Source: a virus (lineage: Duplodnaviria > Caudoviricetes). From it: a DNA stretch of 64,000 nucleotides. The position numbers were made by a program, and so were the translations under genes. Within the stretch, counting starts at the first letter, position 1. Each line of letters starts with the position of its first letter. The DNA lies in the IMG/VR virus record IMGVR_UViG_3300035696_003004, positions 1 through 64,000 of that record, one strand, 5' to 3'. Of this stretch, positions 33,031 to 57,291 are shown piece by piece. Under the pieces are notes generated by a model, which saw only the letters and a program-made list of their open reading frames with translations, was not told where the DNA came from and did not search any database.

Positions 33031-33099
33031 GAGCGACATGCCCCTCGCCTTTGGCGGGAACAAGCAATGGCTCAAGACCAGCAATGGCCTTGGGCCATT
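33031..33099 (+). ncRNA. repeated two-hairpin leader RNA, copy A
   Basis: follows TTGACA(32988)-17-TAAATG; shared consensus. Confidence 0.7.
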
Positions 33100-33135
33100 G
33101 TTGTTTTTGCGCCAAATATCCCCAAGGAGGAAATT

Positions 33136-33249
33136 ATGGCATCTCGCAAACGTATCAGTTCGGCTAAATGTGCACAGGTCCGCAAGGGCACCGACCGCAT
33201 TAAAAAGCTCGGCAAACGCGCCAGCAAAACCATTGCCGTAAAAGGTTAG
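33136..33249 (+). CDS. small basic protein (37 aa)
   Basis: RBS AAGGAGG; MASRKRISSAK... Confidence 0.6.
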   Translation: MASRKRISSAKCAQVRKGTDRIKKLGKRASKTIAVKG

Positions 33250-33272
33250 CGGCATAAGCCCCGGAGACCGAA

Positions 33273-33398
33273 ATGAAATCGACCAAGCGTGTAGGCAAAG
33301 TAAACCTTGTGCAACTTAAAAAAATGCGTCCACCTGTTCATGACGTTAGCAAGCGAATGGATAAAGCACCAGGCAAAACAGCTCGGGGAAAACTTTAA
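33273..33398 (+). CDS. small basic protein (41 aa)
   Basis: RBS GGAG; MKSTKRVGKV... Confidence 0.5.
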   Translation: MKSTKRVGKVNLVQLKKMRPPVHDVSKRMDKAPGKTARGKL

Positions 33399-33426
33399 CT
33401 TACACGCTCCGGTATTCCGGAGCTAA

Positions 33427-35574
33427 ATGTATTCAGAACGCGTTATCTTGGCCAATTTGGACGAGTTTGCAGCTCGTGAAGGATGGATGCCAGTCTATCA
33501 TTCGCTCGATCAAGTAGAGGAATTTAAGAAGTATATCGACTCTATTGTAAAAGTTGAAAGCAATTCTCGATCTTCCTATGTAACTCTTATTCGTACCATC
33601 ACCGAAAAACGGCGCAAGGAGATCTGGCATTGGATCGAAAACGAACAGGCATTGTGCGGACTCGATTCGAACTATTTCGAATCTCGCTACGCCTATGTGT
33701 GCGATGAAAAAGGGCAGATATTTAAATTTAAAAATCGGCTTTCCCAACAAATTTTCGATTCCGTAATTGCCGACTTCGATGAACGGCAAGTATCAATCGA
33801 GTTACTAATAATCAAGGCAAGACAAGTCGGAGTAACCACAAAAACAGCACTAAAGTTTATTCAAAAATTACTTTTTATTCCACATACGCAAGCCGTAATG
33901 GCTTCTGTCCAATCGGATAAATCCGAGTTGATTGGTCGCATTTTGAATACCGTCTATAACCATTGTCCTTGGTGGCTGGTACCACGTTCGCTGCCCAAAG
34001 GTGCTTATGATAATGGCTCAATTCTTTCAATTCAGTCAGGTATGCAAGCGACCGGAATCGCTCAAGGATGGACTCCAACAGCCATACACGTCTCGGAGCT
34101 GGCTGATATACCGAAACCGAAAAAAGTGATCGAAGAGGGTTTACTTAGGGCCACTCACTCTTCCCGCAACTTGTTTTTGGTTTTTGAAGGAACTGGCGGC
34201 GGTAATACTGGCTGGCTGGCAGATACTTGGCGTGCATCCAAAGAAGATTGGCCTAAAGGCCGCGCACGGCTTTGCCCGATTTTTATTCCTTGGGTAATGG
34301 TACCAGATCTGTATCCGGAACCAGATTGGATTCGTAAATTCCCCGTTCCAGGCGGTTGGCATCCAAATGAAGCTACGCATAAGCATATAACGCGCTGCGA
34401 ACTTTATGTTCGTAATACTCCATATTTAACCAAAGTTGTTGGCAAAGATTGGAGAATGCCAGTCGAACAAAAGTGGTTTTGGGAATTTAACTACATGCAA
34501 GCATGCAAGAACCATACTCAAAAAATTTGGCTCGCGCAGATGGCTGCCGATGATCATGAAGCATTAACCGGTGTTTACGATAGTGTATTTGAACCAGAAA
34601 CAATCGACGAGATCGAAAAGTTTAATTACGTAATTCATACGGATGGAAGAACGCGACGGAAAAAATCGCTTCAGGCATATGCAATCACAGGTGATTCGAT
34701 CGATGATAGCTTTAATCCAGATGAATCGTTAATTGATTACGAAAAAATGCATATTCGTGTCTCGTGGCAATCCGATCGTGGACAAAAATTTTTTTGGACG
34801 CTTGTTCCTTTAAAACCAATAGACGAAGAAGATGAAAACGACACGCTCGACAAACTTTTGGTATACGAAGAACCTCAATCGGGCTGCGACTATAGCTGCG
34901 GAATCGATACGGCCGATGGCCTAGGAAAAGAAGACGAAGACCGTACTTGCGTTTCAATGACGCGAAATCGGTTTGGTGATGAGTGCGATTATCAGGTCTG
35001 CGAACTAACTTCAAATAGGATAAATTCTGCACAAATTGTAGGCTTTGCCGCATGCATGGCGGCTTGGTATGGCGAACATACAAAAAATCCGCTTGGCGTC
35101 AAATTCTGTGTCGAACAGATCAGTCGGCCGGGGGATACCTGCCAGCATCAGCTAAAGTTAATGGGCTTTCATTATCATCACAAGCCGCGGCGCTACGACA
35201 GTAAGAAAATCAAAGATGATTCCGGGAAAAAGGAAGGTTGGTTTTCCAACGTATGGAGCGTACCTATCTTGATGACGCGTTTTACCGAAGCCGTGAATGG
35301 CGGTTGGTACCGGCCAGCGTCAAAATGGCTAATCGAGGAATTAAAAACACTAGAACGCCATGAAGCTGCAGGCCGGGCTTCGAAAATGATCCATCGTAGT
35401 GGCTATCACGATGATCGTGTACGTGCCGCTGCGCAGTCTTACTTCACCATTCACGATATGGATGTGTTAGCAGATCGGGCGCAACGGCGTTATTCGCCCC
35501 CGACAGATAGCAATCCACCGCTTAGTCGATCAAAATGCTCGGTCAACAACGTATGTGTAGGAGGATGGGATTGA
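33427..35574 (+). CDS. terL: terminase large subunit
   Basis: IIKARQVGVTT Walker A, IHVSE Walker B, FEGT coupling motif, GIDTADG..D and HDD nuclease motifs. Confidence 0.9.
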   Translation: MYSERVILANLDEFAAREGWMPVYHSLDQVEEFKKYIDSIVKVESNSRSSYVTLIRTITEKRRKEIWHWIENEQALCGLDSNYFESRYAYVCDEKGQIFKFKNRLSQQIFDSVIADFDERQVSIELLIIKARQVGVTTKTALKFIQKLLFIPHTQAVMASVQSDKSELIGRILNTVYNHCPWWLVPRSLPKGAYDNGSILSIQSGMQATGIAQGWTPTAIHVSELADIPKPKKVIEEGLLRATHSSRNLFLVFEGTGGGNTGWLADTWRASKEDWPKGRARLCPIFIPWVMVPDLYPEPDWIRKFPVPGGWHPNEATHKHITRCELYVRNTPYLTKVVGKDWRMPVEQKWFWEFNYMQACKNHTQKIWLAQMAADDHEALTGVYDSVFEPETIDEIEKFNYVIHTDGRTRRKKSLQAYAITGDSIDDSFNPDESLIDYEKMHIRVSWQSDRGQKFFWTLVPLKPIDEEDENDTLDKLLVYEEPQSGCDYSCGIDTADGLGKEDEDRTCVSMTRNRFGDECDYQVCELTSNRINSAQIVGFAACMAAWYGEHTKNPLGVKFCVEQISRPGDTCQHQLKLMGFHYHHKPRRYDSKKIKDDSGKKEGWFSNVWSVPILMTRFTEAVNGGWYRPASKWLIEELKTLERHEAAGRASKMIHRSGYHDDRVRAAAQSYFTIHDMDVLADRAQRRYSPPTDSNPPLSRSKCSVNNVCVGGWD

Positions 35575-35581
35575 TTTAGCC

Positions 35582-35962
35582 ATGCTAAGCAGAAAAATTG
35601 TATTTTGGTTTAATCCGACAACAAAGGAATGGCGTATGGGATTACCGGAAATATATCCGGCACCCTATGGTTATGAAAAGGTTGTCTGTAATACGGCGCA
35701 CGAGGCCGAATTGTGTTCGGAAAAAATGCGTTGGTGGGAATCAATGAACGGCGAAATTGAAAATCAAAGGCGCGAAATGGTTGAAGGTCCGATCAGGGAT
35801 GCATTGCGTAAAGAAATTCTGTGGCTGGCGTCGAACGCTCGCAATGAAATCAACCGGGAGTTTCTGCTACGGCATTTAGCACTATATGACAAGCGGGAAG
35901 ATCGCACTAAAGAAAAACGTGTTAGCTATTTACACAGTGAAGCTTACGAAAAGGGTCGATAA
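35582..35962 (+). CDS. hypothetical protein
   Basis: between terL and the portal gene. Confidence 0.65.
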   Translation: MLSRKIVFWFNPTTKEWRMGLPEIYPAPYGYEKVVCNTAHEAELCSEKMRWWESMNGEIENQRREMVEGPIRDALRKEILWLASNARNEINREFLLRHLALYDKREDRTKEKRVSYLHSEAYEKGR

Positions 35963-36031
35963 TTAACTTAATGTAGACGCGAAACTAAAATTTTATTACT
36001 ATGACTTTACCGAGGAGGAAAGTGGTTATGA

Positions 36032-38083
36032 ATGGAGTTGGAAACAACCGAGTGGCAATGTCCAAAGTTTGAAACTTCCCCTAGCATTCGTGCTGGATGG
36101 GTTGAAGAACAAATTCAAGAGGGCGAAGGCTTTCTGGAAGGCCAGACTTGCTACAAAAATTTAGGTGCCAATTTACGTGTATTTGATGCTATTTTTCGTG
36201 ATAAGTCGCGTTCGACCTTAATAACAAACGAACTTAAATACGATATACGTAAATTCTGCGAAACGCTTGCCGAAGTTCGTGAAATTGCCGCTTATGGATC
36301 GGATTTTCCCGCCTATAAAAAATTTGCTGAGATGCTTACCAAGGTTGCGCGATGTGTTTATCTAGAGTCTGATTTTCCCTTCCAGATTTTAAAAGTTTTG
36401 CAATATGCCAGCGTAATGGGTATTGGTTACTTGTGGCCAAAAGTGCGAGCCGATGAATATGGCTATGGTGAACGCAAGATCGTTTTCGACGCACTTGGAC
36501 TTTTAGATGTTGTTCCGGTTCAAATTCCGCGAACTAACGATGTTCAAGATGCTTATGCAAACACAGTTTATGACTACATGCCGATTGCGGAAGCGCACGG
36601 ACGTTTTCCGCTTTTTCAGGGTCTTTTACAAACAGTTGGCCCTCGTAGTTATAAAACCAAAGTACAAGCACGACGCTTAGACTATGCTGAACGCTATCGT
36701 TACGGCGAACAAGGTCGAAGTTTTGGCAATTTGTATACAGAAATTCGTTACACATTTATTCGGGATCTTCGTATCAATAATACCGGCTATGAATTGCCAA
36801 TGGGCGATCCTGGTACTAGCTGGTTCTACAAAGTACCGTTTGTTGGCCAAATGATATTTGGTGGCATGCGTAACGGAATGCCCTATATGCGTCCGGCATC
36901 CATTGAGGACTGCCGCGTGTATCCCAATCTGCGGCTCATTATCACATCGGCTGGTCTCGATCGACCGATGTACGACGGACCGGCATTCGATTGGGATGGG
37001 AAAATGCCGATCATTCAGTACGTTGTTGATGATTGGGCGTGGGAGCCGATGGGTCGTTCGCTCGTTGGCGATGTAGGCTCAATCGAAATTACAACGCGAA
37101 AAATTGAACGAAAAATCGATCAGGTGATTACTGCCACGCTAAATCCGCCGATTGGTTACGATCACACCGCAACGGGCGGTCCGAAAATCGAACACTTCGA
37201 CATTTTTGAAGAAGATGTGCGCTACGGTGTGGATGGCGAACCACGGAAAATTATGCAATCCATCCTTCCCGAAGAAGTTCGTGTTCAAGGAGAACATTTT
37301 AAGTTTTTAGAATACCTAAAAAATTGCAAACAGGCTCAACTTGGCTTGCAAGATCTTGGAAATCTGCAAAATATCAAAATGAATTTGGCCAATGATACCG
37401 CCGATAAAATGCTGGAATCAATTGGCCCGATTGCAAAGGGTATTGCGGCTAGGATCGAAAAAGCGAATAAAGCCATTGGCCAGCGTATGAAGTTTCTTAT
37501 TTTGCAATGGTTTAATGTGCCGAGAATTATGGAATATGTTGGCCCCGATCAAATTGATCGTGCGGTTTTTGATTTTAATCCTGACGATTTAGTTCCGAGC
37601 CATATGCCCGATGAGCTGATTGGCGGTACTTTTCCGTCATCTCCATCACAGTACGATCGGTTAACGCGCGCGCGTTGGTTTACACGGCAAATTCGCTTAG
37701 TTTCCGTGCCAAGCACGCTGTTACGCATTACGCAAATGCAAGAGCAATTGAAGTATTTGCAGCTAAAACGTGGAAATGCTCCAATTTCTTGGGCAACAGT
37801 TATGAAAAAGCTTGATGTACCGAACTATGGCGACGTGAACGGTAATACAGAACGTGAAAAGTGGTTTAACGAAGAACTTGAAATGCAGAAACTTAAGATC
37901 ATTGCCGCCGCAGCTGCCCAGCAATTGATGCAACAACTTGGCGTGCAACCGCCACAAGGTGCTGGTGGCGGGAAAGGCGGCGGCGGAAAAGGTGGTCGTC
38001 CACCGAGTGGAGCAAAAGCACCGCAGTTAAAACAAAAAGGAGCACAGGGTGGAACGCCTCGTTCAGTTGTCACTGAATCGTAG
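36032..38083 (+). CDS. portal protein
   Basis: 683 aa after terL; helical; Q/G-rich C-terminus typical of P22/T7-like portals. Confidence 0.75.
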   Translation: MELETTEWQCPKFETSPSIRAGWVEEQIQEGEGFLEGQTCYKNLGANLRVFDAIFRDKSRSTLITNELKYDIRKFCETLAEVREIAAYGSDFPAYKKFAEMLTKVARCVYLESDFPFQILKVLQYASVMGIGYLWPKVRADEYGYGERKIVFDALGLLDVVPVQIPRTNDVQDAYANTVYDYMPIAEAHGRFPLFQGLLQTVGPRSYKTKVQARRLDYAERYRYGEQGRSFGNLYTEIRYTFIRDLRINNTGYELPMGDPGTSWFYKVPFVGQMIFGGMRNGMPYMRPASIEDCRVYPNLRLIITSAGLDRPMYDGPAFDWDGKMPIIQYVVDDWAWEPMGRSLVGDVGSIEITTRKIERKIDQVITATLNPPIGYDHTATGGPKIEHFDIFEEDVRYGVDGEPRKIMQSILPEEVRVQGEHFKFLEYLKNCKQAQLGLQDLGNLQNIKMNLANDTADKMLESIGPIAKGIAARIEKANKAIGQRMKFLILQWFNVPRIMEYVGPDQIDRAVFDFNPDDLVPSHMPDELIGGTFPSSPSQYDRLTRARWFTRQIRLVSVPSTLLRITQMQEQLKYLQLKRGNAPISWATVMKKLDVPNYGDVNGNTEREKWFNEELEMQKLKIIAAAAAQQLMQQLGVQPPQGAGGGKGGGGKGGRPPSGAKAPQLKQKGAQGGTPRSVVTES

Positions 38084-38105
38084 TGAATAAAAGGGAGAGA
38101 GATGT

Positions 38106-38345
38106 ATGCCTGTAAAGATCAAAGTACAAAAAGATTACTTTATGACCGAAGTAAGTGCTGATTTGCCAGCAGATGTTGGTGAACTTAATGACGAACTTTT
38201 GGCAATTGGAACGACTGGAAAAATGGTTGTGCAGTATAACCACGGCAGTGTACAAGGCATTAACGTGGAGCAAAGAACAAAGATTCCGGACAATGTAGCG
38301 GATGAAATCAGAAAATTATTAGGCATTGGGACAAAAATTTCGTAA
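38106..38345 (+). CDS. hypothetical protein
   Basis: RBS GGGAG; 79 aa. Confidence 0.6.
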   Translation: MPVKIKVQKDYFMTEVSADLPADVGELNDELLAIGTTGKMVVQYNHGSVQGINVEQRTKIPDNVADEIRKLLGIGTKIS

Positions 38346-38394
38346 TTAGGACTTGACATGAAACAAGATAAGTCCTATACATCGAAAAGATATT

Positions 38395-38460
38395 GAGCGG
38401 CATGCCCCCCCTCCTTGGGGAAGAAGCAATGGCTCAGGACCGAAATGGCCTTGAGCCATT
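38395..38460 (+). ncRNA. repeated two-hairpin leader RNA, copy B
   Basis: follows TTGACA(38353)-17-TATACA. Confidence 0.75.
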
Positions 38461-38485
38461 TCTATTTCAACCCAAGGAGATAACC

Positions 38486-38596
38486 ATGGCGAAGAGACAC
38501 AAAATCGGAATGGTTAAGGCAAGCCACTTAAAGAAGGGCAGAGGCCGCAAGCGTGGTCGCAAACGTGGTGGCAAAAAGAGCGCCATTAAGGCTTAA
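38486..38596 (+). CDS. small protamine-like basic protein (36 aa)
   Basis: RBS AAGGAG; KKGRGRKRGRKRGGKK. Confidence 0.65.
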   Translation: MAKRHKIGMVKASHLKKGRGRKRGRKRGGKKSAIKA

Positions 38597-38609
38597 GTAA
38601 AGGAACCCA

Positions 38610-38924
38610 ATGGCGAGTACACCTACAGCAATGCCCGATCAACAAACGCAAGGCGCCGCTCCTCCAACAGGGGGCGGCGCGCCCCCGCAGAATGCGCCTG
38701 TTCAAACTCCACCTCCTGAACAAGCAGCGGCCCCGTCACAAGGACCAACTAGCGGATTGCAACAATTGCTTTTCCAATGGTCACAAGTAGTGAAACAGAT
38801 TGCTGCATCGGATCCCCGGCTAGCACCTGGAGCCGAAAAGATTTCTCAGGGTATTCAAGACATGCAGACGGCGATTATTTCGCCACCGCAACCGACGCCG
38901 ATGGGTCAGCAACCACAATACTAA
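38610..38924 (+). CDS. P/Q-rich head-associated protein
   Basis: RBS AAGGAA; position before the scaffold gene. Confidence 0.6.
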   Translation: MASTPTAMPDQQTQGAAPPTGGGAPPQNAPVQTPPPEQAAAPSQGPTSGLQQLLFQWSQVVKQIAASDPRLAPGAEKISQGIQDMQTAIISPPQPTPMGQQPQY

Positions 38925-38948
38925 AAAATTGCGGGAGAAGAAAAGGTT

Positions 38949-39977
38949 ATGCCTACAGTTTCAGAGTTACTAAAGCAATCCGGTCTTACCGATGAACAGA
39001 TCGCGGCACTTGATCCAAAGATGGTCAGTTCATTTAGTGGCATTTTGACGTCCGCCGACAGTGAACGCCAAGCCGCACAGCAAGCAGCAGCTAAAGCTGA
39101 AGCGGAACGTAAAGCCGCAGCCGAAGATGCGGCAAAGGCCGAACAAGAACATCAAGCAGCTATGAAAGCCAAAGAAGAAGCGGAATTGGCTGATCGTAGT
39201 TGGCGCCAGTTTTACGATGAAAGCGTTACGCCGGCACTAAATACATGGGGAACTGAAAAGGCCAATCTTGAAGCGCAATTAGCTTTTTACCGTGCGCAAA
39301 ATGATGCTGCCCGCGCTGGTGGTTTTGTTCCGCAAGATGCGCCAGGTTATGTGCCACAAGCTTTAGATCCATCCAATGCTTCGGCCGCACAACCGCGTGA
39401 TCCCAAAGGTCGTTATGTGGCAGGTGCCGCAACTGGAACGCCAGGCTCGCCTGTTTTTACGGTGGATGCAATTGAAGAACGTCTTGGCAATGGCATCAGT
39501 AATATCGGCTGGGCGATGCAGGAATATGCCAGATTGAACGAAGGCAAGATTTTACCTGATCCTTTTGATTCGCTAGCAAAAGAAGCAACAAATATGCGCC
39601 TCCCGTTTCGCGATTATGTCGCGCGGAAATACGACTTTGCTGGCAAACAGGCGGAAATGCAGCAAAAAATGCAGCAAGAACATGATGCTCAAGTCGCTGC
39701 TAGCGCTGTGAAGCCATTGCAAGAACAGTTGGCGGTAAAAGAAAAAGAATGGCAGGAAAAGTTATCAGCCAAAGATAAGGAATGGGCCGAAAAGATTGGC
39801 TCTAACCCGGACGTTCGTATTGCGCAACCATCGCGGTTTGCTGATGTTGCGCGCGCCGTAAAGGCAAATGAACGTCCAGATCCGTTGAATTTGAATGAAC
39901 AACAACGTCGACTAGCTACTTCGCAAGCGATCCGCCATGAAATTGTAGAGCAAAACATGGAACAAGCGGCTGCGTAA
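38949..39977 (+). CDS. capsid scaffolding protein (putative)
   Basis: A/E/Q/K-rich coiled coil directly upstream of the capsid gene. Confidence 0.65.
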   Translation: MPTVSELLKQSGLTDEQIAALDPKMVSSFSGILTSADSERQAAQQAAAKAEAERKAAAEDAAKAEQEHQAAMKAKEEAELADRSWRQFYDESVTPALNTWGTEKANLEAQLAFYRAQNDAARAGGFVPQDAPGYVPQALDPSNASAAQPRDPKGRYVAGAATGTPGSPVFTVDAIEERLGNGISNIGWAMQEYARLNEGKILPDPFDSLAKEATNMRLPFRDYVARKYDFAGKQAEMQQKMQQEHDAQVAASAVKPLQEQLAVKEKEWQEKLSAKDKEWAEKIGSNPDVRIAQPSRFADVARAVKANERPDPLNLNEQQRRLATSQAIRHEIVEQNMEQAAA

Positions 39978-40003: not shown

Positions 40004-40064
40004 GAGACGCATGCCCCCCTTCGGGGAATAAGCAATGGCTCAAAACCATTAATGGTTTTGGGCC
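40004..40064 (+). ncRNA. repeated two-hairpin leader RNA, copy C
   Basis: CATGCCCCC TTCG GGG AATAAGC AATGGCTCAAAACCA TTAA TGGTTTTGGGCC, then a T run; no clear promoter. Confidence 0.65.
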
Positions 40065-40179
40065 TTTTTTATTTTGGAAGAAAAACGGTGATTGTAAGCA
40101 AAAATTTCAAGATCCGACTTGGATGGATTGTCGTCGGAGAAACACCCAGCAATGGAGACACTTTCGAAAGGAGCAGCAA

Positions 40180-40226: not shown

Positions 40227-41459
40227 ATGCCAACTGATCCTCTCTACAACGAAATAGACGCTTCTAACTTAGAAAGTGTCAGAAAGAACGTGGTATATAA
40301 CAATCTGTTTGTCGATACCCCGTTCCAGGCTAAGTTGCGCCGTGCTGGTGTTTGGGATGAGTTCCTTGGTGGCGCCGGCATGATGGAAGGCATCTTGTAC
40401 GGGCGCACGCAGGGAGCTGCGGTGAACCCGGGCCAGACCGTCACCGTAACCCGCCAGCAAATCAACACCGGCATCAAGTTCCTGCCCAAGGCTTATGCCG
40501 CGTGGTATCCGCTGGATGACTGGGAAATGGATGATGGTTCCGGTACAGGCGGCGTCATCAATTCCGGTCCATCGAAGATTGTGGACGAATACCAACTCTA
40601 CATGGAAGCGATGGTAATGACTATCAACACCATGCAAGAGATGGATTCGTTCCGCCATGGGCAACCGTCCTCAACAACCGTTCAGGATAACCGTATTAAG
40701 ACGATCAACGGCCTGGACGAAGCGCTGAATAACGGTATTGATAACTCGGTGTATGGCAATATCTACACCAATTACGGCGGACAAGCGCGCAACGGGAATA
40801 TTGGAACTGCGCTCAATGCTACGCCGCTATTTCTGGGTACATCGGCCGGTGCTCCTGGGCTGATCGATTTTGCCTCGTTGATGCAGCTCTGGTCGCAGTG
40901 CAAAGTTACCGGCGGCAATCCGACGCTGGGTATTACGAATGTGTTTGGTTTTAAGGCTATCGCCATCGCGCTCGATGCGCAGCGGCGTGACGTTTCTAAT
41001 ACCAAACACGACATCAAGTGGGATGGTATGAACTTTAATGGCGTCGACATTTATGCCGATCCGCTAGCACCATCCGCCCAAGCACAAAACTATCTTGAAT
41101 TGGCACCGGCCAACGGCGCAGCAGGAAACACGAATCTTGCTGACGGCGTTGGATCGAGCACGGCAACGGTTACCTTTACTACGCCGCAATTTACAAAAAA
41201 TGGTGCGCCTGTATCTGTATCGCCGACCGGTTCTGGTTTGCCGTCAAATACGACAATTCAGCCTTCCGAAGTCCTTTACTTCCTGGAGCCGGAAAGCTTC
41301 AAGATCCGCCCGACAAACAAAAAGGGCTGGAACTTTGGATTGCGCCGCGCACCAATGCCAAACAACGTAAGCATTGATGCTTTGTTTATGCGGCTTGGCA
41401 CAAATCTCTACAACACTCAGCCTCGTCACAATGGCTACGCATTTGGCTTTACTGCCTGA
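40227..41459 (+). CDS. major capsid protein
   Basis: 410 aa after the scaffold; HK97-fold-like composition; GC3-rich codon usage suggests high expression. Confidence 0.8.
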   Translation: MPTDPLYNEIDASNLESVRKNVVYNNLFVDTPFQAKLRRAGVWDEFLGGAGMMEGILYGRTQGAAVNPGQTVTVTRQQINTGIKFLPKAYAAWYPLDDWEMDDGSGTGGVINSGPSKIVDEYQLYMEAMVMTINTMQEMDSFRHGQPSSTTVQDNRIKTINGLDEALNNGIDNSVYGNIYTNYGGQARNGNIGTALNATPLFLGTSAGAPGLIDFASLMQLWSQCKVTGGNPTLGITNVFGFKAIAIALDAQRRDVSNTKHDIKWDGMNFNGVDIYADPLAPSAQAQNYLELAPANGAAGNTNLADGVGSSTATVTFTTPQFTKNGAPVSVSPTGSGLPSNTTIQPSEVLYFLEPESFKIRPTNKKGWNFGLRRAPMPNNVSIDALFMRLGTNLYNTQPRHNGYAFGFTA

Positions 41460-42373: not shown

Positions 42374-42709
42374 ATGGTTCTCAATGTGCTTTACGGGCTG
42401 TATCCGGATTTTGTCGGTCGCCGCGCAATCATTGTCGGCAATGGCACGGGCCCAGCTTTGTATGTAACTGGTGGCGATACAGTTACGCTTAATTTGCCCA
42501 ATTACTACATTGATGCACTTGCGGGCGAAGTTTTGACGGTAAGTGGAAACTACTATGTGCGACCAATTCCGTCTGCAGTTGGACCTCGAGCCGTTTGGAA
42601 ACTGAAATGGTACTACGCAACTGGCGCTTCGGCAAATACTGAAGTGACTGCAAGTACCGTTTTGTCGTCCGAGCAACTTCAAATTGGCGGATTTTGTGGG
42701 CAATTTTAA
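42374..42709 (+). CDS. virion structural protein
   Basis: RBS AGGAG; structural operon. Confidence 0.6.
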   Translation: MVLNVLYGLYPDFVGRRAIIVGNGTGPALYVTGGDTVTLNLPNYYIDALAGEVLTVSGNYYVRPIPSAVGPRAVWKLKWYYATGASANTEVTASTVLSSEQLQIGGFCGQF

Positions 42710-42745: not shown

Positions 42746-42785
42746 CCGGCTCTTGTGGGGAAATCCCATAAGAGCCGTTTTGTTA
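42746..42785 (+). terminator. intrinsic terminator
   Basis: CGGCTCTTGTGGG-GAAAT-CCCATAAGAGCCG-TTTT. Confidence 0.65.
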
Positions 42786-42795
42786 GGAGCGCAAC

Positions 42796-43809
42796 GTGGC
42801 TCTTCAAAACATGCGACAAGAGTTACTTGGAATTCCGGGAACAAACTTTGGCTTAGTAACCACTAAAGTCAATGAAGCTTTTGCTGCAATTCAAAATGAA
42901 AACGTTTGGAGTTTTCAGTTAACCGATGGTGGATGGCTTACGCCTGGATTGCTTGGTGGTCCTAATACACAATTTCTTAGTCCAGGAACAATTACGGTTA
43001 CACCATTTACCAACACTATTACAGGAGATGCAACTGCTTCTGCCGCATGGATTGCTGCTTTAATTAGCCCTCCATTGCTTACGCAACAACAAATACGCGT
43101 TCCGTATTATTCGCTGTACAGCATTATTGCCGCAAATGTGACAAACCCCAGTGCGGTTGTATTAACCATTGATCGGCCATGGATGGAGCCAAAACAAACT
43201 AATGGTACATACATGATTTATCAGGCATATTATGCCGCACCGGTTGGATTTAAACGTTGGTACAACATTCGCGATACCACCAATAACAACTATATGGACT
43301 GGTGGAGCAAAACTGAAATTGATTTAGCAAATGAAGATGCTGAGCGAACCGATTTTGATGAGCCGCTTTATGTAGTGCCGTACAAAATGGATACACGCGT
43401 GGGAAGCGCAACGTATGGCCAAATGCTTTTTGAACTTTGGCCACATCCGATTACGCAACTTCCTTATACGTTTGCTTGTCAAGCAAATTGGCCAGTGCTT
43501 AGTAGCCCTTCTGCTACTGTACCGTACCCGCTTAACGACGAGTTGGTTAAGTTACGTGCATACGAAATGCTTTATTTGTGGAAAGAATCGCAAAAGGGCG
43601 ATGAGATGGAGCGCGGCGCAGGAGCTAATTGGCAATTTCTTTTACAAGCCGCACGAGCTGAATATGATGACCGGCTTAAACATATTCGCGTGATGGACAA
43701 AAGTATTGTTGATCTTTATTTCAGCAAGATGGAACGGTTGCCGTCCGCGTTTGGCGAACCGTATGCGACGGTCGAAGGTCAATTGAATATTGGCGGATGG
43801 GGAGCATAA
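42796..43809 (+). CDS. head-tail adaptor/structural protein
   Basis: ELWPHP motif; position. Confidence 0.55.
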   Translation: MALQNMRQELLGIPGTNFGLVTTKVNEAFAAIQNENVWSFQLTDGGWLTPGLLGGPNTQFLSPGTITVTPFTNTITGDATASAAWIAALISPPLLTQQQIRVPYYSLYSIIAANVTNPSAVVLTIDRPWMEPKQTNGTYMIYQAYYAAPVGFKRWYNIRDTTNNNYMDWWSKTEIDLANEDAERTDFDEPLYVVPYKMDTRVGSATYGQMLFELWPHPITQLPYTFACQANWPVLSSPSATVPYPLNDELVKLRAYEMLYLWKESQKGDEMERGAGANWQFLLQAARAEYDDRLKHIRVMDKSIVDLYFSKMERLPSAFGEPYATVEGQLNIGGWGA

Positions 43810-49897: not shown

Positions 49898-50092
49898 ATG
49901 CCCGCTCGCGAAATTATGAAAAAGTTCCGCAAAGGTCAGTTGCATTCAGGAAAGGGCGGAAAGATCGTACGAAATAAAAAACAAGCTAAAGCGATTCTTT
50001 TGTCGTATCTGCGTAAGGAAGGTCGAATTGGGCCTCGTAAACCGCTAGCAAAAAAGAGTCGGCATAGAAAAAGGATTGCCACCAAGAAATAA
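49898..50092 (+). CDS. small basic protein
   Basis: K/R-rich; MKKFRKGQLHSGKGG...QAKAI. Confidence 0.65.
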   Translation: MPAREIMKKFRKGQLHSGKGGKIVRNKKQAKAILLSYLRKEGRIGPRKPLAKKSRHRKRIATKK

Positions 50093-50118
50093 GTGGTGGA
50101 TGATTGTATAGATATCGC

Positions 50119-50184
50119 GAGCGGCATGCCCCCCCTCCTTGGGGAAGAAGCAATGGCTCAAGACCGAAATGGCCTTGGGCCATT
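50119..50184 (+). ncRNA. repeated two-hairpin leader RNA, copy D
   Basis: near-identical to copy B; follows TTGCCA(50076)-17-GATGAT. Confidence 0.75.
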
Positions 50185-50212
50185 TTCATTTTGGCCGAAA
50201 GGAGGAAAATTG

Positions 50213-50473
50213 GTGGCAAAACTAAGTTACAAAAAACGGCAAAAACTGCCGAGCAAAGCGTTTGCTATTAAAGGGCGGCGCTACCCGATTAATGATCCTG
50301 CGCATGCAAAAAACGCGTTAGCACGAGTGTCACAACACGGATCTCCGCAAGAAAAAGCTGAAGTACGACGTAAGGTGCATGCCAAGTTTCCTGGAATTGC
50401 CGTTAGCGGCTTGAAAAAGGGAAAGACCAAAGCTAAAAAGAAAGGCCGCAAGCGCGTGGCTGGAAAGGGATGA
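50213..50473 (+). CDS. small basic protein
   Basis: RBS GGAGG; LSYKKRQKLPSKAFA..RRYPI.D..HA.NALAR. Confidence 0.65.
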   Translation: MAKLSYKKRQKLPSKAFAIKGRRYPINDPAHAKNALARVSQHGSPQEKAEVRRKVHAKFPGIAVSGLKKGKTKAKKKGRKRVAGKG

Positions 50474-50476
50474 GCG

Positions 50477-50731
50477 ATGGCAAAGCGTACAAGGGCTGCT
50501 GCATCTGGATTGGAACGGTTAAACATAGGCGTGGAGCGCGCTGAGAATGGCGCAATAGTGCGTGTGAGCGGTGAGGGCAAAGGAAAAAACGCTTCCTATA
50601 CCAGCCGCACTTTTATTGCTCCAAACGGCCGTGCCGCGATGAGAATTGCCACTACGCATATTCAAGGCATTGGCAAAAAGATAAAGTCCGGTAAAGCAAA
50701 AGCGACAAAAGGCCGCGCGCGCAAAAGCTGA
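50477..50731 (+). CDS. small basic protein
   Basis: K/R-rich; 84 aa. Confidence 0.55.
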   Translation: MAKRTRAAASGLERLNIGVERAENGAIVRVSGEGKGKNASYTSRTFIAPNGRAAMRIATTHIQGIGKKIKSGKAKATKGRARKS

Positions 50732-50740
50732 AGGTTTGTA

Positions 50741-52063
50741 ATGGCTGGATATTCCTGGCTTACGTATTCAACGGCGCGCCAACAGCTTGCAGCTCGTTTG
50801 GCGGACAGTGGAAATGTGTTTTGGACAGATGCAGAATGTGGACTTTACATTATCGACGCTTTGCGAATGTTTAATGTGCTTACGTTTACTTGGAAGCAAG
50901 ATTATGTTTTTTATGCTACAAACCTTTGGAATACGTTGGGAACTTTGACAAATTCGCCGCGGATACGAACAGTTACAGATACCAACTGCTACACCTTGAT
51001 GGAATACATGCTGTTAGAACCGCCGACAGGGGGTACGTGGACTGGAACCTCGCAATTTACAATCAATCAATTTTCGACGGCGTTGCAGCATCGTAGGGAT
51101 GAAATGCTGCAAATTTCCAATTGCAACCAATTGTTGCTGAGTTCGATTGCGCTGACACCAAATACCAGACGTACGTACTTGCCGGACACAATAATCGATG
51201 TTGCGCGCGTTCGGTATTTGCCTGTAACAGGGTCGCCGACGACACTTTATCGCGATGATACAGTTGCGCAAGAATTTTATGAAGCGCCACTTTACGAACT
51301 AGGCTCAGGAACGCCGCAGACCTATATGTTGACTTCAGAGCCGCCGCTTACTTGGGATGTCGATATTACTCCAAATCTGCCGGGCAAATACGAAGCAATT
51401 GTGCTTGAGTCTGGTGCTGCATTTATTCCGCCCACAGCGACGCTTTTAAATATTCCAAACGACTTTTCATGGGTGCTGATTTGGGGTGCAATTGCAGATT
51501 TGTTGGGTATGGAAAGTGAGGCTACTGATCGGCAGCGAGCGTCGTATTGCTTGCGCAGATACCAGGATGGTTTGAATTTGTTGCTGAAAACACCTTGGAT
51601 TATGTTGGCAAAGGTAAATGGAGCAGCAACGGATATACCGTCGATTGCGGCCATGGATCGGTATCAGCCGGAGTGGGATTCAACTCCCGCAACTTTTGGG
51701 CCCTGCGTGGTAGCAGGCGGAATCGATATGATCGCGGCTCCCCAAGGCTCAAGTATCGGAGTGACGGTGCTGGCCAATGCGCCGGTGCCGTCCTCTGATA
51801 CCGATTACGTGCAAGTTTCACGATCAGATTGGGATATTGTTTTGGATTTGGCTCAAGTTTTTGCAGCATTTAAGCAAGGAGGAGCTGAGTTTCAATCGGC
51901 ATTGGAATTGGAATCGAGAGCAATTCAGGCATGCGCTGTTGAAAATACACGTTTAAAAAGTATGGGCAGCTTTAGCGACATTTTGGCACAACGCGGACAA
52001 GCACAGGATCGCAATCAGGAAAGATTTAATAATGCCAACCAAAAAACTAGCGGGACAAAATAG
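50741..52063 (+). CDS. tail adaptor/tubular protein (putative)
   Basis: 440 aa upstream of the large tail protein. Confidence 0.55.
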   Translation: MAGYSWLTYSTARQQLAARLADSGNVFWTDAECGLYIIDALRMFNVLTFTWKQDYVFYATNLWNTLGTLTNSPRIRTVTDTNCYTLMEYMLLEPPTGGTWTGTSQFTINQFSTALQHRRDEMLQISNCNQLLLSSIALTPNTRRTYLPDTIIDVARVRYLPVTGSPTTLYRDDTVAQEFYEAPLYELGSGTPQTYMLTSEPPLTWDVDITPNLPGKYEAIVLESGAAFIPPTATLLNIPNDFSWVLIWGAIADLLGMESEATDRQRASYCLRRYQDGLNLLLKTPWIMLAKVNGAATDIPSIAAMDRYQPEWDSTPATFGPCVVAGGIDMIAAPQGSSIGVTVLANAPVPSSDTDYVQVSRSDWDIVLDLAQVFAAFKQGGAEFQSALELESRAIQACAVENTRLKSMGSFSDILAQRGQAQDRNQERFNNANQKTSGTK

Positions 52064-52065
52064 AT

Positions 52066-55000
52066 ATGGCAAATCCGCAAAATTACGGTCGGGCAAACGA
52101 TGGTATTCGGTTTAAGCCAGGTGGCATAAATACTGTCAAGGCTGTTGACCAAATTACACAGCCAGGGGAATACTCCTATCTCCAAAATGTTCGCGGCTAT
52201 CTACAGAATCGATTGATTGGCCGGACAACGCAATCGAGCGCTCTCGATACGTTGAGTGCCGTACCGCACACAATGCGTCGACTTAACGATTCGACGCCTA
52301 GTGGCCCAACATCAGGTTATGCTCGAATCATTGGCGCGGCTGGATTAATGTATATAAATTCGACGAAAGTAGCGTCTGGATTAAGTGGCAATCCTGTATC
52401 CATGGTACCATTTCGGCCGAATGCATCCGTACAGCCTTGGATGTATATAGGCGATTCATCTACAGACGTTACAATCACAAGTTCGTCATTTGTTTGCGAT
52501 GGAATGCTTAAAATTCGGTCTGATGGCTTGACATATAAAACTGGAATTGCTGAACCACAAGTTGCGCCGGTAGTGAGCACAGGAAGTTATACGACAAATG
52601 GCACCGATGTATTACCGGCGACGGCGATGCCGTGGACCAACCGCGGAGGCACCAACGCCAACTGGAATTTTGGAGGCATTGAAACCGCAGCAAACACAAA
52701 TCCCGTAGTAATCAATACGCCAATTGAAGGGTCAACGGTTACCTTAAGTGTAACGGGGACGGCAACGCTGATTAACGGTGTAAGTAATGCGACACCAAGT
52801 ACCTCCAGCTCAAGTTGGGTTACATCTGTTTATCCCGGGCACTATTTGAAATCGGGAGCTAGCAGTTGTTCAGTAGTTGTAGCTGCATTTACAGACATAA
52901 ATGGAAATGTAATTGCTGAAGCGTCTTCTTCGACAACGGGATACATCTACAACGTGGGTGCAGGGGTCGTTTTAACTGTTCCTGTCAATGCGGTGCAGCT
53001 GCATGTAGGCATTAACTCGCAAGGCGGCACTTTTCATTCCAACAGCGGTAATTTTACTCTTACTTGGACTGTAGTAACACCGGCTACGGCAACGGTTGTT
53101 TCGCTTTACAACACTGTTACTGCGTATTATTGGGGCGACTCTCCACACTCTGGATCGGTATCTTTGTACATTTGGAAAAATCCGGAAGATTCCGGATCGG
53201 GTACTTCGCGTACAAGTAGCACAGCAGCAGGATCATCAACTAATAACTCGCTAATTTTCGATTCAACGCCAAATACGTCATCTAATCCTGTTTTATGGAC
53301 AACGCTCAATACAGATGGAACTGTGGAAGGAACAATAGATTTATTTGCAACCGCATTGGAATCTCAAGGGTTTCAAGACTTTAACGTTTGTATAGTGGGA
53401 AGTTTGTATATTCCAGTAGCTGGAACTTACGCATTCCAAATGGTCAATAAAGATCAAGTCATGTTTGGAATTGGCGGTGGCGCAACGACTTCCTTGGGAA
53501 CGGTTAAAGGACCAAGCGCTCAAACCGAAACGGTGATAAGTGCATTGCCCTTAATGGCAGTTAGCAGTCCAAATGGCGAAGGTGGTGCAGTTACTACATC
53601 ATTTAACGTTACTTTTAGCGAACCCGGTACTTATAGTTGCGAAGCTGATTGGGATTATTGGTATCACAATGGACGAACAATGGTTATCACTTGCGCGCCG
53701 ACGCCAGGAGCAGCTGTTGCAACGATTCCACCGCTCTCTACAAATGTGCGAACCAATGTTTCGTATGAATATGTTTATCGGTCTTCAAAGACAGGCGCAG
53801 TATCGAACCCTTCGCCAGCCTCCACTATTCAAGATACGCCGGTACTGGCAAACACGGTCACATCTTTATATTCGTCTGATCCGCAGGTCGATAAGGTTGA
53901 CTATTACAGAATGGATGCTACTTTAACAAGTTATACGTACATTGCTACCGGGCCAAATGACAATTTGGGCGTGACAAGCGGTTATAACACACCGATTCAA
54001 GATACTGTTACAGATTCAGCGGCGGAAGATAATAGCACGATCAGTACGGATAATTTTGAACCATTTCCATCGATTGATACGCCCAAAAGCGGAGTAATTA
54101 ATATTTCTGGCGGAACAATTACATGGGTAAGTGGTGACACGTTCAACACAAGTTGGTTGCCAGGAACAATTATTTTGATCGGATCTCCTACGCAATTAGG
54201 ATATACATTATATTCGCGCCCGACTTCAACAACAACAATGTATCTGCCTGATGCACCTGACGGAACTAATCTTAATTACAACATTGCCGAACCGATATTG
54301 GCAGCCCGGCCGCTGCCATCGATGTGGGGACCGACCGATAACACTGCTTATATGTTTGCTTGCAATGATCCGTACCGGCCAGGGACGCTTTATTTTACAA
54401 AAGGAAACAATCCGGACTCGGCACCGGATACGAATCAAATCGAAGTCACGTCGCCTTCCGAGCCGTTAATGAACGGATGCATTGTAAACGGCGTAGGAAT
54501 GGTGTTTTCAACGGAACGTGCATGGATTATCGATCCGACCTATACCTCTGCGCTGGCCACAGTTAGCGGAGTGCAGGGAAGCGCTTTTAATTTGATTGAG
54601 TCAATCACCAATCGCGGCCTTTACATACGCAGTTGCCTTTGCACGGAAGCGGGAATGAATGTTTTTTTCCGCGCCAAAGACGGAATTTACGTTTCGCCAA
54701 AGGGTTCGGGGAGCCAATCGATTACCGATTCTCAGCTCTACAATCTTTTTCCTCATGAAGGCTCAACGCCGGCAGCAGTCACGATTGCCAGCTATACAAT
54801 CTATCCGCCCAATGACTTATTACCAAATAAACAAACTTTGTCGTTTGCCAATGGATACTTGTATTACGACTATGAAGACACCAGTGGAAATCCGCGAACG
54901 CTGGTTTATGATGTCGTAGCCAAGGGCTGGATTGTCGATGTTTATGGAACTACGGTTACCTGTCATGCGCTTGAAGAAGGAGTTGAAGTCAACGATACGC

Positions 55001-56028
55001 TGGTAGGATGCACGGACAGTACTGTGCGCGATTTGGAAAGTGGAGGAACAGAGACGGCAACTTCCGTAGTGGCGACTGGCGCGGTAAACACCGGAGATGC
55101 GCGAGCATTTAAAAGACTAGGCGATGTATTTCTGAAAGCGTTTGTGGCAACCAGTAATCCGGTTACGGTCTCGCTATATACAGATCGCTACCAAACAGCA
55201 CTGACCGGCTTTAGCCCGACAAGTTTAACCGGAAACGGAACGATTCAGCCCTACATCATCGATTTTACTTCTGGCTATGCGAAAGACGTGATTGATGTTG
55301 AAGCGGTTTTAAGTTGGCCAACAAACTCTACGACTTATATCGATCTTTGGCAACCGACATTTATTGCTCTACCGGAAGCGACACAAGATAGGCCCACGGA
55401 TTGGGGCGATTTGGGAAGTGTGGGATTGAATTTTGTGCAGGGATTGATTTTGGAGGCCGACACTTTCAATGCCGCAAAAGCAATTTCTGTCGAGGATGAG
55501 CTGGGAAATCTTCATGTTCCCAATGAATCGCCCTTTACTCTAAACGGTCAGCAAAAAATTCCATTGACATTTACGCCGCCATTTACGAGCCATATTGGAA
55601 GAGTGGTGTCTACGGATGGAGTTCGGTGGAAATTGTGGGGCATCAACTGGGTCAGTTTGCCGTATCCAGAATCGACGGTAGAATGGCAAACAGAAATGCT
55701 TTCGCATGGAATGAAGGGTTGGTTTCATGTGCGAATGATGAATCTTCCAATGATTTCAACAACGGCAGTTACACTAACGTTGGTATTTGACGCTTGGCCA
55801 ACAATCACCTTAGCGGTACCAAGTACAAGTGGATCGTTTATAAAGCAAAAAGTTCAAATTCCAGCAAATAAGACCAAGTTGTTGAGCTATCGATTGAGTT
55901 CGACAGCTCCGTTTTATTTGTTTAAAAATGATGTAGAGGTTTGGATTGGGCAGTGGGGCCGAACGGAGGCATATACGGTTTTAAAGCCATTTGGTGGATC
56001 AGCAGGAAACGCAGGAGCGCAAGTCTAA
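52066..56028 (+). CDS. large tail nozzle/hub protein with a PA14-like insertion
   Basis: 1320 aa, beta-rich; no tape-measure or sheath gene in the window, consistent with a podovirus layout. Confidence 0.6.
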   Translation: MANPQNYGRANDGIRFKPGGINTVKAVDQITQPGEYSYLQNVRGYLQNRLIGRTTQSSALDTLSAVPHTMRRLNDSTPSGPTSGYARIIGAAGLMYINSTKVASGLSGNPVSMVPFRPNASVQPWMYIGDSSTDVTITSSSFVCDGMLKIRSDGLTYKTGIAEPQVAPVVSTGSYTTNGTDVLPATAMPWTNRGGTNANWNFGGIETAANTNPVVINTPIEGSTVTLSVTGTATLINGVSNATPSTSSSSWVTSVYPGHYLKSGASSCSVVVAAFTDINGNVIAEASSSTTGYIYNVGAGVVLTVPVNAVQLHVGINSQGGTFHSNSGNFTLTWTVVTPATATVVSLYNTVTAYYWGDSPHSGSVSLYIWKNPEDSGSGTSRTSSTAAGSSTNNSLIFDSTPNTSSNPVLWTTLNTDGTVEGTIDLFATALESQGFQDFNVCIVGSLYIPVAGTYAFQMVNKDQVMFGIGGGATTSLGTVKGPSAQTETVISALPLMAVSSPNGEGGAVTTSFNVTFSEPGTYSCEADWDYWYHNGRTMVITCAPTPGAAVATIPPLSTNVRTNVSYEYVYRSSKTGAVSNPSPASTIQDTPVLANTVTSLYSSDPQVDKVDYYRMDATLTSYTYIATGPNDNLGVTSGYNTPIQDTVTDSAAEDNSTISTDNFEPFPSIDTPKSGVINISGGTITWVSGDTFNTSWLPGTIILIGSPTQLGYTLYSRPTSTTTMYLPDAPDGTNLNYNIAEPILAARPLPSMWGPTDNTAYMFACNDPYRPGTLYFTKGNNPDSAPDTNQIEVTSPSEPLMNGCIVNGVGMVFSTERAWIIDPTYTSALATVSGVQGSAFNLIESITNRGLYIRSCLCTEAGMNVFFRAKDGIYVSPKGSGSQSITDSQLYNLFPHEGSTPAAVTIASYTIYPPNDLLPNKQTLSFANGYLYYDYEDTSGNPRTLVYDVVAKGWIVDVYGTTVTCHALEEGVEVNDTLVGCTDSTVRDLESGGTETATSVVATGAVNTGDARAFKRLGDVFLKAFVATSNPVTVSLYTDRYQTALTGFSPTSLTGNGTIQPYIIDFTSGYAKDVIDVEAVLSWPTNSTTYIDLWQPTFIALPEATQDRPTDWGDLGSVGLNFVQGLILEADTFNAAKAISVEDELGNLHVPNESPFTLNGQQKIPLTFTPPFTSHIGRVVSTDGVRWKLWGINWVSLPYPESTVEWQTEMLSHGMKGWFHVRMMNLPMISTTAVTLTLVFDAWPTITLAVPSTSGSFIKQKVQIPANKTKLLSYRLSSTAPFYLFKNDVEVWIGQWGRTEAYTVLKPFGGSAGNAGAQV

Positions 56029-56164
56029 TGCCAAAAATTACGATTACTGAACGTCGCTGCGATCGATGTGGGAAAATCGGCACAGTACCGTGGCCGAACA
56101 AAAAATGTCCTGATTGTACGAAATGGGCCAAGCAAAATCCTACAAAGGCAAAGTAGGCATTTAA

Positions 56165-57139
56165 ATGGCTGTTTACATTGCACCTAAAAAGTGGCCAGCA
56201 TTAGACGACAACCCGTCGTCCGCAGAAGTCGCTTTAAATTTGCGAAGAGTTTTTAATACATTGAATGACCATGACCAAGCGATTAACACAATGTATGCAA
56301 ACGGGACTACTGTTACCACCGAAACCGTCACAAAACTTATTACTGAGGCGGCTACTTCCTCTTCGTCTTCGCTTAATGTGGTCACATCTTTTAATGGCAG
56401 CAAAGGCGATATTACATTTTTTAATTATTTGGGGACTGTTGACAATCAAGTCGGAGTTACAAGTTATACAACGCAAAGTTCCGATGATGGCGCAATGATT
56501 CTAATCGATGATTCATCGGCTGTGGCTATTACTTTAAATTTTAACGTCTCGGCACCATGGTTTACAACTATCGTCAATTTGGGGACTGGTACAGCTACTC
56601 TTACGCCGTCAAGTGGTACGGTTAATGGTGCGGCTTCGGTAACACTTTATGGCGGAAGCTTTTCTATCGTTTACTTCGATAGTACAAATTTTTGGGCTAG
56701 TTTGCTACCCATTGCTTCGACTAGTCAATTTGGATTAGTGAAGCCAGATAATTCCACAATTACTATATCAAATGGGGTTATATCATCTGTTTCTTCTTCG
56801 TGGTTAGGAGGTACATTATCGATAAGCAATATTACAATTGGTTCCGGTGCAGGAACCGGTGCTACTTATAGCATTGTGGGTACTGATGGCAATCATACAG
56901 TTGCAATTGAAACAGGTACGTCACCAGCAGCTTCCTCTATGCTATTTACAATTACGTTCACAGCATCGAGAGGCCATACGACTTATCCAGTGATTTGGCA
57001 GGCGGGACTAAGTGGATATACATCGCTCGCTCAATCTGTATGGATTAATTCAAGTTCAAGTACATCATATACTATAAACTCTGGATCAACTGCATTAACG
57101 GCAGGTGTTGAATACTATTGGAATGTTGTTTGCCCGTAA
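56165..57139 (+). CDS. tail fibre/needle-like protein
   Basis: S/T-rich; SQFGLVKPDNSTITI repeat typical of fibres. Confidence 0.55.
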   Translation: MAVYIAPKKWPALDDNPSSAEVALNLRRVFNTLNDHDQAINTMYANGTTVTTETVTKLITEAATSSSSSLNVVTSFNGSKGDITFFNYLGTVDNQVGVTSYTTQSSDDGAMILIDDSSAVAITLNFNVSAPWFTTIVNLGTGTATLTPSSGTVNGAASVTLYGGSFSIVYFDSTNFWASLLPIASTSQFGLVKPDNSTITISNGVISSVSSSWLGGTLSISNITIGSGAGTGATYSIVGTDGNHTVAIETGTSPAASSMLFTITFTASRGHTTYPVIWQAGLSGYTSLAQSVWINSSSSTSYTINSGSTALTAGVEYYWNVVCP

Positions 57140-57226
57140 GTATAATTGCATAAATAAGGTCGAAATAGGGCGAATTAGATATGTTGTTATAAATATAAAC
57201 TAGGATTATTCTGTTGATACATTAGT

Positions 57227-57291
57227 GAGCAACATGCCTCCCCAACGGGGAACAAGCAATGGCTCAAAGTCCGAAATGGCTTTGAGCCATT
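57227..57291 (+). ncRNA. repeated two-hairpin leader RNA, copy E
   Basis: follows TTGTTA(57184)-17-TATTCT. Confidence 0.7.

Follow-up and report, generated by a model that had tools for sequence, protein, structure and literature searches.

The late region of a tailed phage, IMG/VR virus record IMGVR_UViG_3300035696_003004, raises the question of why one short RNA leader recurs in front of its virion-gene units and what that leader does there. The window analysed here comprises positions 1 to 64,000 of this record, and an earlier reading of its letters alone (the original prediction) had placed in it five copies of a two-hairpin leader RNA, at a fixed distance from late-gene promoters, without recognising a described family. 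The element, a folded RNA of 80-95 bases, represents a family outside Rfam that is strand-specific and structured, and its two best-supported 3′ helices are mutually exclusive partners of one RNA strand.

Within this phage the element is genuine, strand-specific and confined to the virion-gene half. All five copies were recovered at their predicted coordinates on the + strand with scores of 78-89 bits under R1, a covariance model built from 45 family members that also gives the scores of the individual copies:

33031..33114, + strand: leader copy 1 (87.5 bits; terminator-like in scans)
38395..38475, + strand: leader copy 2 (88.9 bits)
40004..40082, + strand: leader copy 3 (80.5 bits; intercistronic, without a promoter-like site)
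50119..50199, + strand: leader copy 4 (84.8 bits)
57227..57306, + strand: leader copy 5 (78.3 bits)

The next-best + strand match in the window scored 10 bits, and the reverse strands of the five copies reached at most 31 bits. The 13-mer AAGCAATGGCTCA has exactly five occurrences in the window, with no further one in the rest of the IMG/VR provirus record (72,987 bases in all), and its count of matches at two mismatches was reached by none of 100 shuffles.

Building a covariance model and searching viral sequences with it, as the original prediction had proposed, yielded a family of about 90 distinct copies (R1, E below 1e-11) on roughly 60 IMG/VR contigs. A scan of IMG/VR with a 19-base motif returned 53 stretches, scans anchored on another part of the element added 36 further loci, and extra contigs came in as relatives of the terminase gene. 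Five larger relatives carry 6-8 copies each, all on the late-gene strand and within 35-40 kb of late region; one of them (G003) is a 134-kb genome with terminal repeats. A loose gapped-pattern scan of genome contigs reported at least 120 stretches, and the 80 listed (L101-L180) are chance hits without a model match. Near-identical phage records were sought and none was found. Among public sequencing runs no RNA run was listed, and one aquatic DNA study held about one-third of the sampled words.

The suspicion that the family had not been described was borne out by Rfam 15, which gave no match at the gathering threshold in the 64 kb window. Under permissive settings the hits were all of a generic hairpin kind, among them microRNA precursors and Mu-gpT-DE, the latter scoring 15 bits where its threshold is 49. 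The Rfam families considered included Acido-1, sRNA-Xcc1 and Mu-gpT-DE, and Acido-1, which had been singled out for checking, gave no useful match.

The consensus opens with an A-rich block at -12 to -7, followed by R0 (GAGnnnCAUGC) and by H1, a hairpin in which a variable top separates a C-rich arm from a G-rich one. Between H1 and S1 lies a linker (AAnAAGC); S1 reads AAUGGCUCAAG (core form GCAAUGGCUCAAG) and is followed by CC. S2, (A)GnAAUGGC, is a loop segment that nearly duplicates S1, and S3, CUUGRGCCAUUKCY, runs into a short U run. In four of the window copies these segments lie as follows, all on the + strand:

Copy 1: R0 33031-33041, H1 33042-33058, linker 33059-33065, S1 33066-33076, S2 33079-33088, S3 33089-33102, U-rich tail 33103-33114
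Copy 2: R0 38395-38405, H1 38406-38420, linker 38421-38427, S1 38428-38438, S2 38441-38449, S3 38450-38463, tail 38464-38475
Copy 4: R0 50119-50129, H1 50130-50144, S1 50152-50162, S2 50165-50173, S3 50174-50187
Copy 5: R0 57227-57237, H1 57238-57250, S1 57258-57268, S2 57271-57280, S3 57281-57294

Covariation was counted on 75 distinct sequences, with 500 shuffles as nulls. Helix A (S1:S3) together with H1 has 90% of its cells paired and nine double-changed pairs, and helix B (S2:S3) has 86% paired and seven double-changed pairs in 43 cells; for neither did any of the 500 shuffles score as high. An unbiased mutual-information scan placed its top two column pairs in B, with A and H1 next. One of these connects the tail to the 'N' in what looks like a GNRA loop (42 A-U, 15 C-G) and the other joins a U/C of S2 to an A/G of S3, while tail position 76 tracks S2, not S1. 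Since A and B are mutually exclusive, both must be under selection. In copy 3 of the window helix B does not form, and helix A makes an unbroken 12-bp stem with UUUUUUAUUUU after it.

A third helix, P1, forms between R0 and S1 around H1; for all transcripts cut off just past S1, P1 with H1 is the predicted fold of lowest energy. R0 and S1 hardly vary, which leaves little covariation in P1. An altered S1 core occurs in only three of about 88 sequences, and the same three alone have an altered R0 core (CGCGC-GCAGCGG, CGCGC-GCAACGG and CACGC-GCGAUGG), and two of the three regain full pairing, one of them via a shifted bulge. In predicted energies the combination P1+H1+B lies on average 5.2 ± 4.9 kcal/mol above H1+A, favouring A, and the two folds are within 3 kcal/mol of each other in 24 of 73 copies. 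These data establish H1, A and B as helices, show that A and B exclude each other, and reveal a modular 5′ domain. The two-hairpin anatomy first proposed is therefore incomplete: its second hairpin is helix A, but P1 and B had been missed. Its GNRA loop does cap a 3-bp helix in fold A, but the loop is also a near-copy of the 5′ arm and alternatively pairs with the 3′ arm. The wobble and compensatory changes described for the second stem are present in the window and far stronger across the 75 sequences of the family.

Two other explanations for the conserved sequence were rejected. A leader peptide or upstream open reading frame (ORF) starting at an AUG in R0 or S1 is ruled out in that no element frame contains a stop codon, the lengths of H1 and S2 shift the frame between copies, and both AUGs are always base-paired. 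A DNA operator built from direct and inverted repeats of GCAATGGC is ruled out by G-U pairs, which are confined to one strand, and by the reverse strand, which retains less than half the bits.

With regard to how the leaders are transcribed, copies 1, 2, 4 and 5 lie behind sigma-70-like sites of the form TTGnnn-17-(T/G)Annn(T/A) that end 13-15 nt before GAG:

32988..33016, + strand: promoter-like site of copy 1 (TTGACA, 17-nt spacer, TAAATG; or TTAAAT with a 16-nt spacer)
38353..38381, + strand: promoter-like site of copy 2 (TTGACA, 17-nt spacer, TATACA)
50076..50104, + strand: promoter-like site of copy 4 (TTGCCA, 17-nt spacer, GATGAT)
57184..57212, + strand: promoter-like site of copy 5 (TTGTTA, 17-nt spacer, TATTCT)

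Copy 3 has no such site; it begins about 30 nt after the preceding ORF ends with its stop codon. The CTTGAC upstream of the copy 1 homologue is kept in relatives, and the TATTCT of copy 5 is kept in relative G001. Across the family an upstream TTGnnn is found in 51 of 78 contexts and CTTGAC in 36 of 78; a conserved promoter is never present before capsid-type copies, and 26 of the 78 contexts have a -10-like hexamer (A2, T6, at least four of six positions matching) whose end lies 5-6 nt upstream of GAG. The promoter linkage that had been predicted holds for four of the five window copies, but about one-third of family copies are without a promoter-like site, and the distance, although much the same behind the four window boxes, ranges over 12-16 nt in relatives. 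The spacer of the copy 4 site (50079-50099) is filled by an inverted repeat, CCACCAAGAAATAAGTGGTGG (CCACC..GGTGG), that has a similar counterpart in relatives (L009) and could be an operator.

The window is entirely phage, with genes for an ERF recombinase, an integrase, methylases, a primase-helicase, SSB and a RelB/YafQ pair, and the phage is temperate, to judge by its integrase. A temperate phage whose late promoters are constitutive would need a block downstream of them. The leader may supply that block: the reading that we tentatively favour, as possible rather than probable, is a cis-acting leader switch common to all virion-gene units, in which a conditional transcription stop is sensed via the 5′ domain. 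During transcription R0 would pair with S1 (P1) around H1 to form the 5′ domain, and S3 would then either pair with S2 as the short hairpin B or oust R0 and pair with S1 as the long hairpin A. Either hairpin would abut the short U run and act as a conditional stop, which would keep both the sigma-70-type late promoters and upstream read-through unproductive until a phage-specified signal, presumably acting on the conserved 5′ domain, let polymerase pass. A masked ribosome-binding site nearby may strengthen the block. The original prediction had left the choice between an antiterminator like the HK022 put RNA, an attenuator gating the late genes, and a set of small RNAs; the attenuator or switch fits best because the alternative helices are supported by covariation.

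This arrangement has parallels in well-studied systems. It resembles the PR′-tR′ segment of phage lambda (6S RNA), on which Q acts, in that a temperate phage places a constitutive sigma-70-type promoter, a stop (here a proposed one) within about 100-200 nt and then the virion genes in that order; in lambda the block is lifted late in infection. Lambda also has a -10-like pause element in the initially transcribed region, for which a possible counterpart here is the conserved A-rich block at -12 to -7, with its -10-like hexamer in 26 of 78 contexts. The lambda element, however, is single copy and Q reads DNA, whereas here there are 5-8 copies, covarying RNA helices and copies without a promoter. 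As in the RAT leaders of the BglG-SacY-LicT system and in PyrR attenuators, the 5′ structure shares the S1 strand with the putative stop hairpin and the two are mutually exclusive; PyrR leaders have three alternative hairpins. Here, unlike there, it is the 3′ arm of the putative stop hairpin with which the competing helix A pairs, both helices finish at one U run, and the genes served are phage late genes.

The evidence for a stop is mixed. The UUU after S3 is nearly invariant across the family, and copies 1, 3 and 5 pass simple terminator scans. Several observations weigh against the conditional stop. A terminator discriminant, which is trained on Escherichia coli and may not suit the host of this phage, is above 0 in only 11-13 of 73 copies, compared with +25 for a control terminator at 42747, and marks the U tails of window copies 2, 4 and 5 as weak. 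One copy in a relative (G003:118091) has no U run, yet keeps P1, A and B through compensatory changes. Another (G002:18481, C1, - strand; L235) consists of R0, H1 and S1 only, without S2, S3 or U run, and is fused directly to the ribosome-binding site and start of a 64-amino-acid-type gene; the 5′ domain must therefore work without the hairpin. Helices A and B share one U run end, so there is no obvious read-through fold, and a stop before the most abundant virion protein, as at copy 3, would be odd. Furthermore, no antiterminator-like protein was recognised by Pfam or PHROGs among the genes screened.

Some of the same features would suit elements that are not regulated at all, namely plain terminators or insulators spread as a promoter-linked repeat, or abundant short trans-acting RNAs. 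The promoter-to-hairpin distance predicts RNAs of about 95 nt, the hairpin with its U run resembles the 3′ ends of small RNAs of the Hfq or ProQ type, and the element is multicopy. The conservation and covariation of R0, H1 and A/B and the truncated, hairpin-less copy are left unexplained by a plain terminator, and for an insulator the order of promoter, hairpin and gene is reversed, a related Acidobacteria phage having a terminator and then a promoter. Such passive elements are very unlikely; the small-RNA option of the original prediction is backed only by how close the hairpin lies to the promoter, and no target complementarity was found for it, in the absence of a search aimed at it.

The position of the leaders relative to the genes they serve bears on a different kind of explanation. 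The genes behind the leader are conserved by copy type, and in the window they are:

33136..33249, + strand: tiny basic ORF T1, 37 amino acids, ending in ..LGKRASKTIAVKG; homologues of 36-42 amino acids lie behind the same copy type in relatives
33273-33398, + strand: second T1-like ORF, after T1
33427-35574, + strand: large terminase gene (TerL by PHROG), after the T1-like ORFs
38486..38596, + strand: tiny basic ORF T2, 36 amino acids (..KASHLKKGR..KKSAIKA), behind copy 2
38610-38924 and 38949-39977, + strand: head-module ORFs of 104 and 342 amino acids, after T2
40227..41459, + strand: major capsid protein gene (PHROG major head protein), served by copy 3
50213..50473, + strand: basic DUF6582-like gene of 86 amino acids (phrog_16160), behind copy 4
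57315..57902, + strand: gene of 195 amino acids (MGFWSSLFGG...), behind copy 5; homologues follow the same copy type in G001-G003, the family protein having about 190 amino acids

The DUF6582-like gene is followed by virion genes of 440 and 1320 amino acids. The leaders do stand at virion-gene units, as had been stated, but the units had been partly misnamed: directly behind copies 1 and 2 come tiny basic ORFs, and behind copy 4 comes the DUF6582-like gene. In most copies the ribosome-binding site lies 10-25 nt past S3, and in some, including copy 3, the start codon is 90-140 nt away.

The closeness of most leaders to a ribosome-binding site is one of the points in favour of post-transcriptional control, in which the switch would act on the initiation of translation or on how the mRNA is processed and how stable it is, and not on termination. 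In a long fold S1:S3 would be extended by pairing of the linker with the tail, and R0 and H1 would pair with the Shine-Dalgarno sequence and start codon; the start would then be masked, or the duplex cut by an enzyme of the RNase III type, as at T7 intercistronic sites and in the lambda N leader. In P1+H1+B the start would be free, and GGGGAAnAAGCAAUGGC would serve as a decoy start site. If copies 1, 2, 4 and 5 are folded together with the ribosome-binding site, the structure of lowest energy is a single nested hairpin; in it H1 is paired to the Shine-Dalgarno region, and the start codon region to the CAUG of R0. The truncated G002 copy can likewise pair its R0 with the start codon (GGCAUG:CAUGCC) and CCCCUUU with AAAGGGG of the Shine-Dalgarno sequence, and copies that head T2 form 9-10 bp between CUCCUUGGG and CCCAAGGAG, with a compensating C-G to U-A change in L025, L036 and L069. 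The weak U tails point the same way, and the genes served (capsid, tiny basic proteins) are ones whose products are expected in bulk. This complementarity is, however, largely generic, a C-rich arm facing a G-rich Shine-Dalgarno sequence: the left arm binds its own start site at -20.2 kcal/mol, compared with -17.6 kcal/mol for 150 sampled element-free start sites (mean z -0.54), and anti-start-site complementarity was rejected as a general rule on this weak test. Predicted start-site accessibility barely differs between A-constrained (0.41) and B-constrained (0.43) ensembles, the copies 90-140 nt from a start codon do not fit, and the nearly invariant UUU is left unexplained. Control after transcription is unlikely. 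The T7 intercistronic RNase III sites resemble the element in that a phage carries conserved hairpins at several places, after late promoters and in the gaps between cistrons, which would give each gene block a defined RNA end; they differ from it in having neither a U run nor a 5′ domain.

Read-through elsewhere in the late region brings in another class of RNA, one that modifies RNA polymerase. A strong canonical terminator (42747-42787; a 14-bp stem and UUUUGUU) follows a stop codon at 42709 and abuts the ribosome-binding site of the next late gene, which has its GTG at 42796. The space left would not hold a promoter, and the downstream tail and lysis genes therefore depend on read-through, so that polymerase must pass some terminators in the late region. 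The put RNA of phage HK022 is a nascent RNA of about 70 nt that forms two stem-loops downstream of a promoter (PMC9378689). Compared by description, the element answers to this account: it is about 70-80 nt long with two stem-loops, is promoter-proximal or internal, and is multicopy. Its 5′ domain or GNRA-capped hairpin might bind RNA polymerase, either alone, as put does, which needs no protein and acts in cis through the beta′ zinc-binding domain, or jointly with a small basic protein, on the model of N and boxB, and polymerase would then resist both the element's own stop and the terminators downstream. The put-like size and shape (about 70 nt and two stem-loops, promoter-proximal or a few hundred nt downstream; PMC9378689), the tiny Lys/Arg-rich ORFs directly behind two copy types, and the A-rich block just before R0, with its -10-like hexamer in 26 of 78 contexts, comparable to putL (PMC9378689), all accord with such a modifier.

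Against it, the effect of put is processive and two copies suffice in HK022, and a processive effect would make the promoter-less copy 3, only 1.6 kb after copy 2, unnecessary. The put RNAs serve early operons and have neither a terminator-like second hairpin trailing them nor alternative helices, and covarying alternatives such as A and B are unexpected in a fixed polymerase-binding fold. The put option of the original prediction is weakened because copies recur in one transcription path, each with its own stop-like hairpin. In N/nut antitermination a boxA is accompanied by a boxB hairpin with a GNRA-like loop, to which an Arg-rich peptide binds; fold A has a GNRA-capped 3-bp helix, but the loop bases covary with the tail as helix B, and no boxA was recognised in the element. 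A polymerase modifier appears improbable.

The tiny ORFs also suggest a more elaborate version of the leader switch. T1 and T2 represent two paralogous families of 34-42 amino acids, Lys/Arg-rich, whose ends (..KRASKTIAVKG and ..KKSAIKA) are conserved in relatives; T2-type ORFs across the family have 34-40 amino acids, are Lys/Arg-rich and are followed by head-module genes. No Pfam family was found for these ORFs, and an ESM Atlas look-up for T2 gave no lead. In a three-way strand-exchange switch, S3 would move between S1 and S2 according to whether R0 captures S1, and the balance would be set by the T1 and T2 peptides, which would bind RNA in the manner of N or of ribosomal proteins and exert feedback on every late unit at once. 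This peptide-set version is a decidedly long shot, a little more so than the polymerase modifier.

A protein that could supply the signal for the conditional stop was sought among the genes of the early and middle regions. No Q-like or CAT/PRD family was found among 17 early-region proteins scanned with Pfam (E<=0.01), and no Q-like family among 20 conserved early proteins compared with PHROGs; a 95-amino-acid helix-turn-helix (HTH) gene (29977-30267) was covered by PHROGs alone. The Pfam and PHROG scans of early and middle ORFs gave HTH, excisionase-like, phosphoesterase, SSB and toxin-antitoxin proteins and the like, the toxin-antitoxin pair being a RelB antitoxin with a YafQ/ParE-type toxin at 27637-28183. 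A PyrR-like protein was not found among the genes screened. Two conserved genes just upstream of the first late promoter, of 149 and 279 amino acids, belong to no Pfam or PHROG family; the 149-amino-acid protein has no sequence match in the PDB and a predicted model of low confidence, and the 279-amino-acid protein has no solved relative by sequence and a model of pLDDT (predicted local distance difference test) 66 with no fold match above Z 4.7. Between the latter gene and the first late promoter lies a HAD_SAK_2 gene (32377-32799; an RNA-repair 'Swiss army knife' HAD domain), which is not at the corresponding position in G001-G003.

Other features of these genomes were noted in passing. In three relatives (L061, L062 and L063) large-terminase residues 121-715 span 2,934 bases, compared with about 1,785 expected, which suggests an insertion of about 1.1 kb of the intein, intron or homing-endonuclease type. 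The late spacers of G003 (L225-L227; downstream of 126098, 118091 and 101181) contain a second short repeat, GGACC..N..GGGGACC(CC), near leader copies. No tRNA genes were found in the window.

The carriers of the element form a large clade of temperate phages from soil and peat that have not been cultured and probably infect Acidobacteria. The major capsid protein is 90-92% identical in G001-G003, and the only cultured relatives are Tunturiibacter (Acidobacteriota) phages, to whose major head protein it is 27% identical; these lack the element, no copy being present in Tunturiibacter phage Tunturi_1. Homologues of neighbouring genes occur as contaminants in Sphagnum assemblies, and these matches fit a peat host without proving one.

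Collectively, multi-locus use, a modular 5′ domain and two covarying, competing helices set the element apart from PR′-tR′/Q, put, nut and RAT. The timing of late genes in tailed phages outside the model systems is mostly unknown, and here one RNA module, kept across a large clade before every virion-gene unit, appears to coordinate those units. Its architecture, in which two helices compete for one strand and end at the same U run, is unusual and small enough for biochemical dissection. Should the stop-and-release reading be true, the leader would be an RNA-based, multi-locus alternative to Q, N and put; should control be translational, it would be a decoy start-site switch; and a strand exchange set by T1 and T2 would amount to a self-contained RNA-peptide timer for virion genes, without known counterpart. 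Whether the output is a transcription stop or a translational switch, Rfam gains a new RNA family from the element, which also marks late promoters in these phages.

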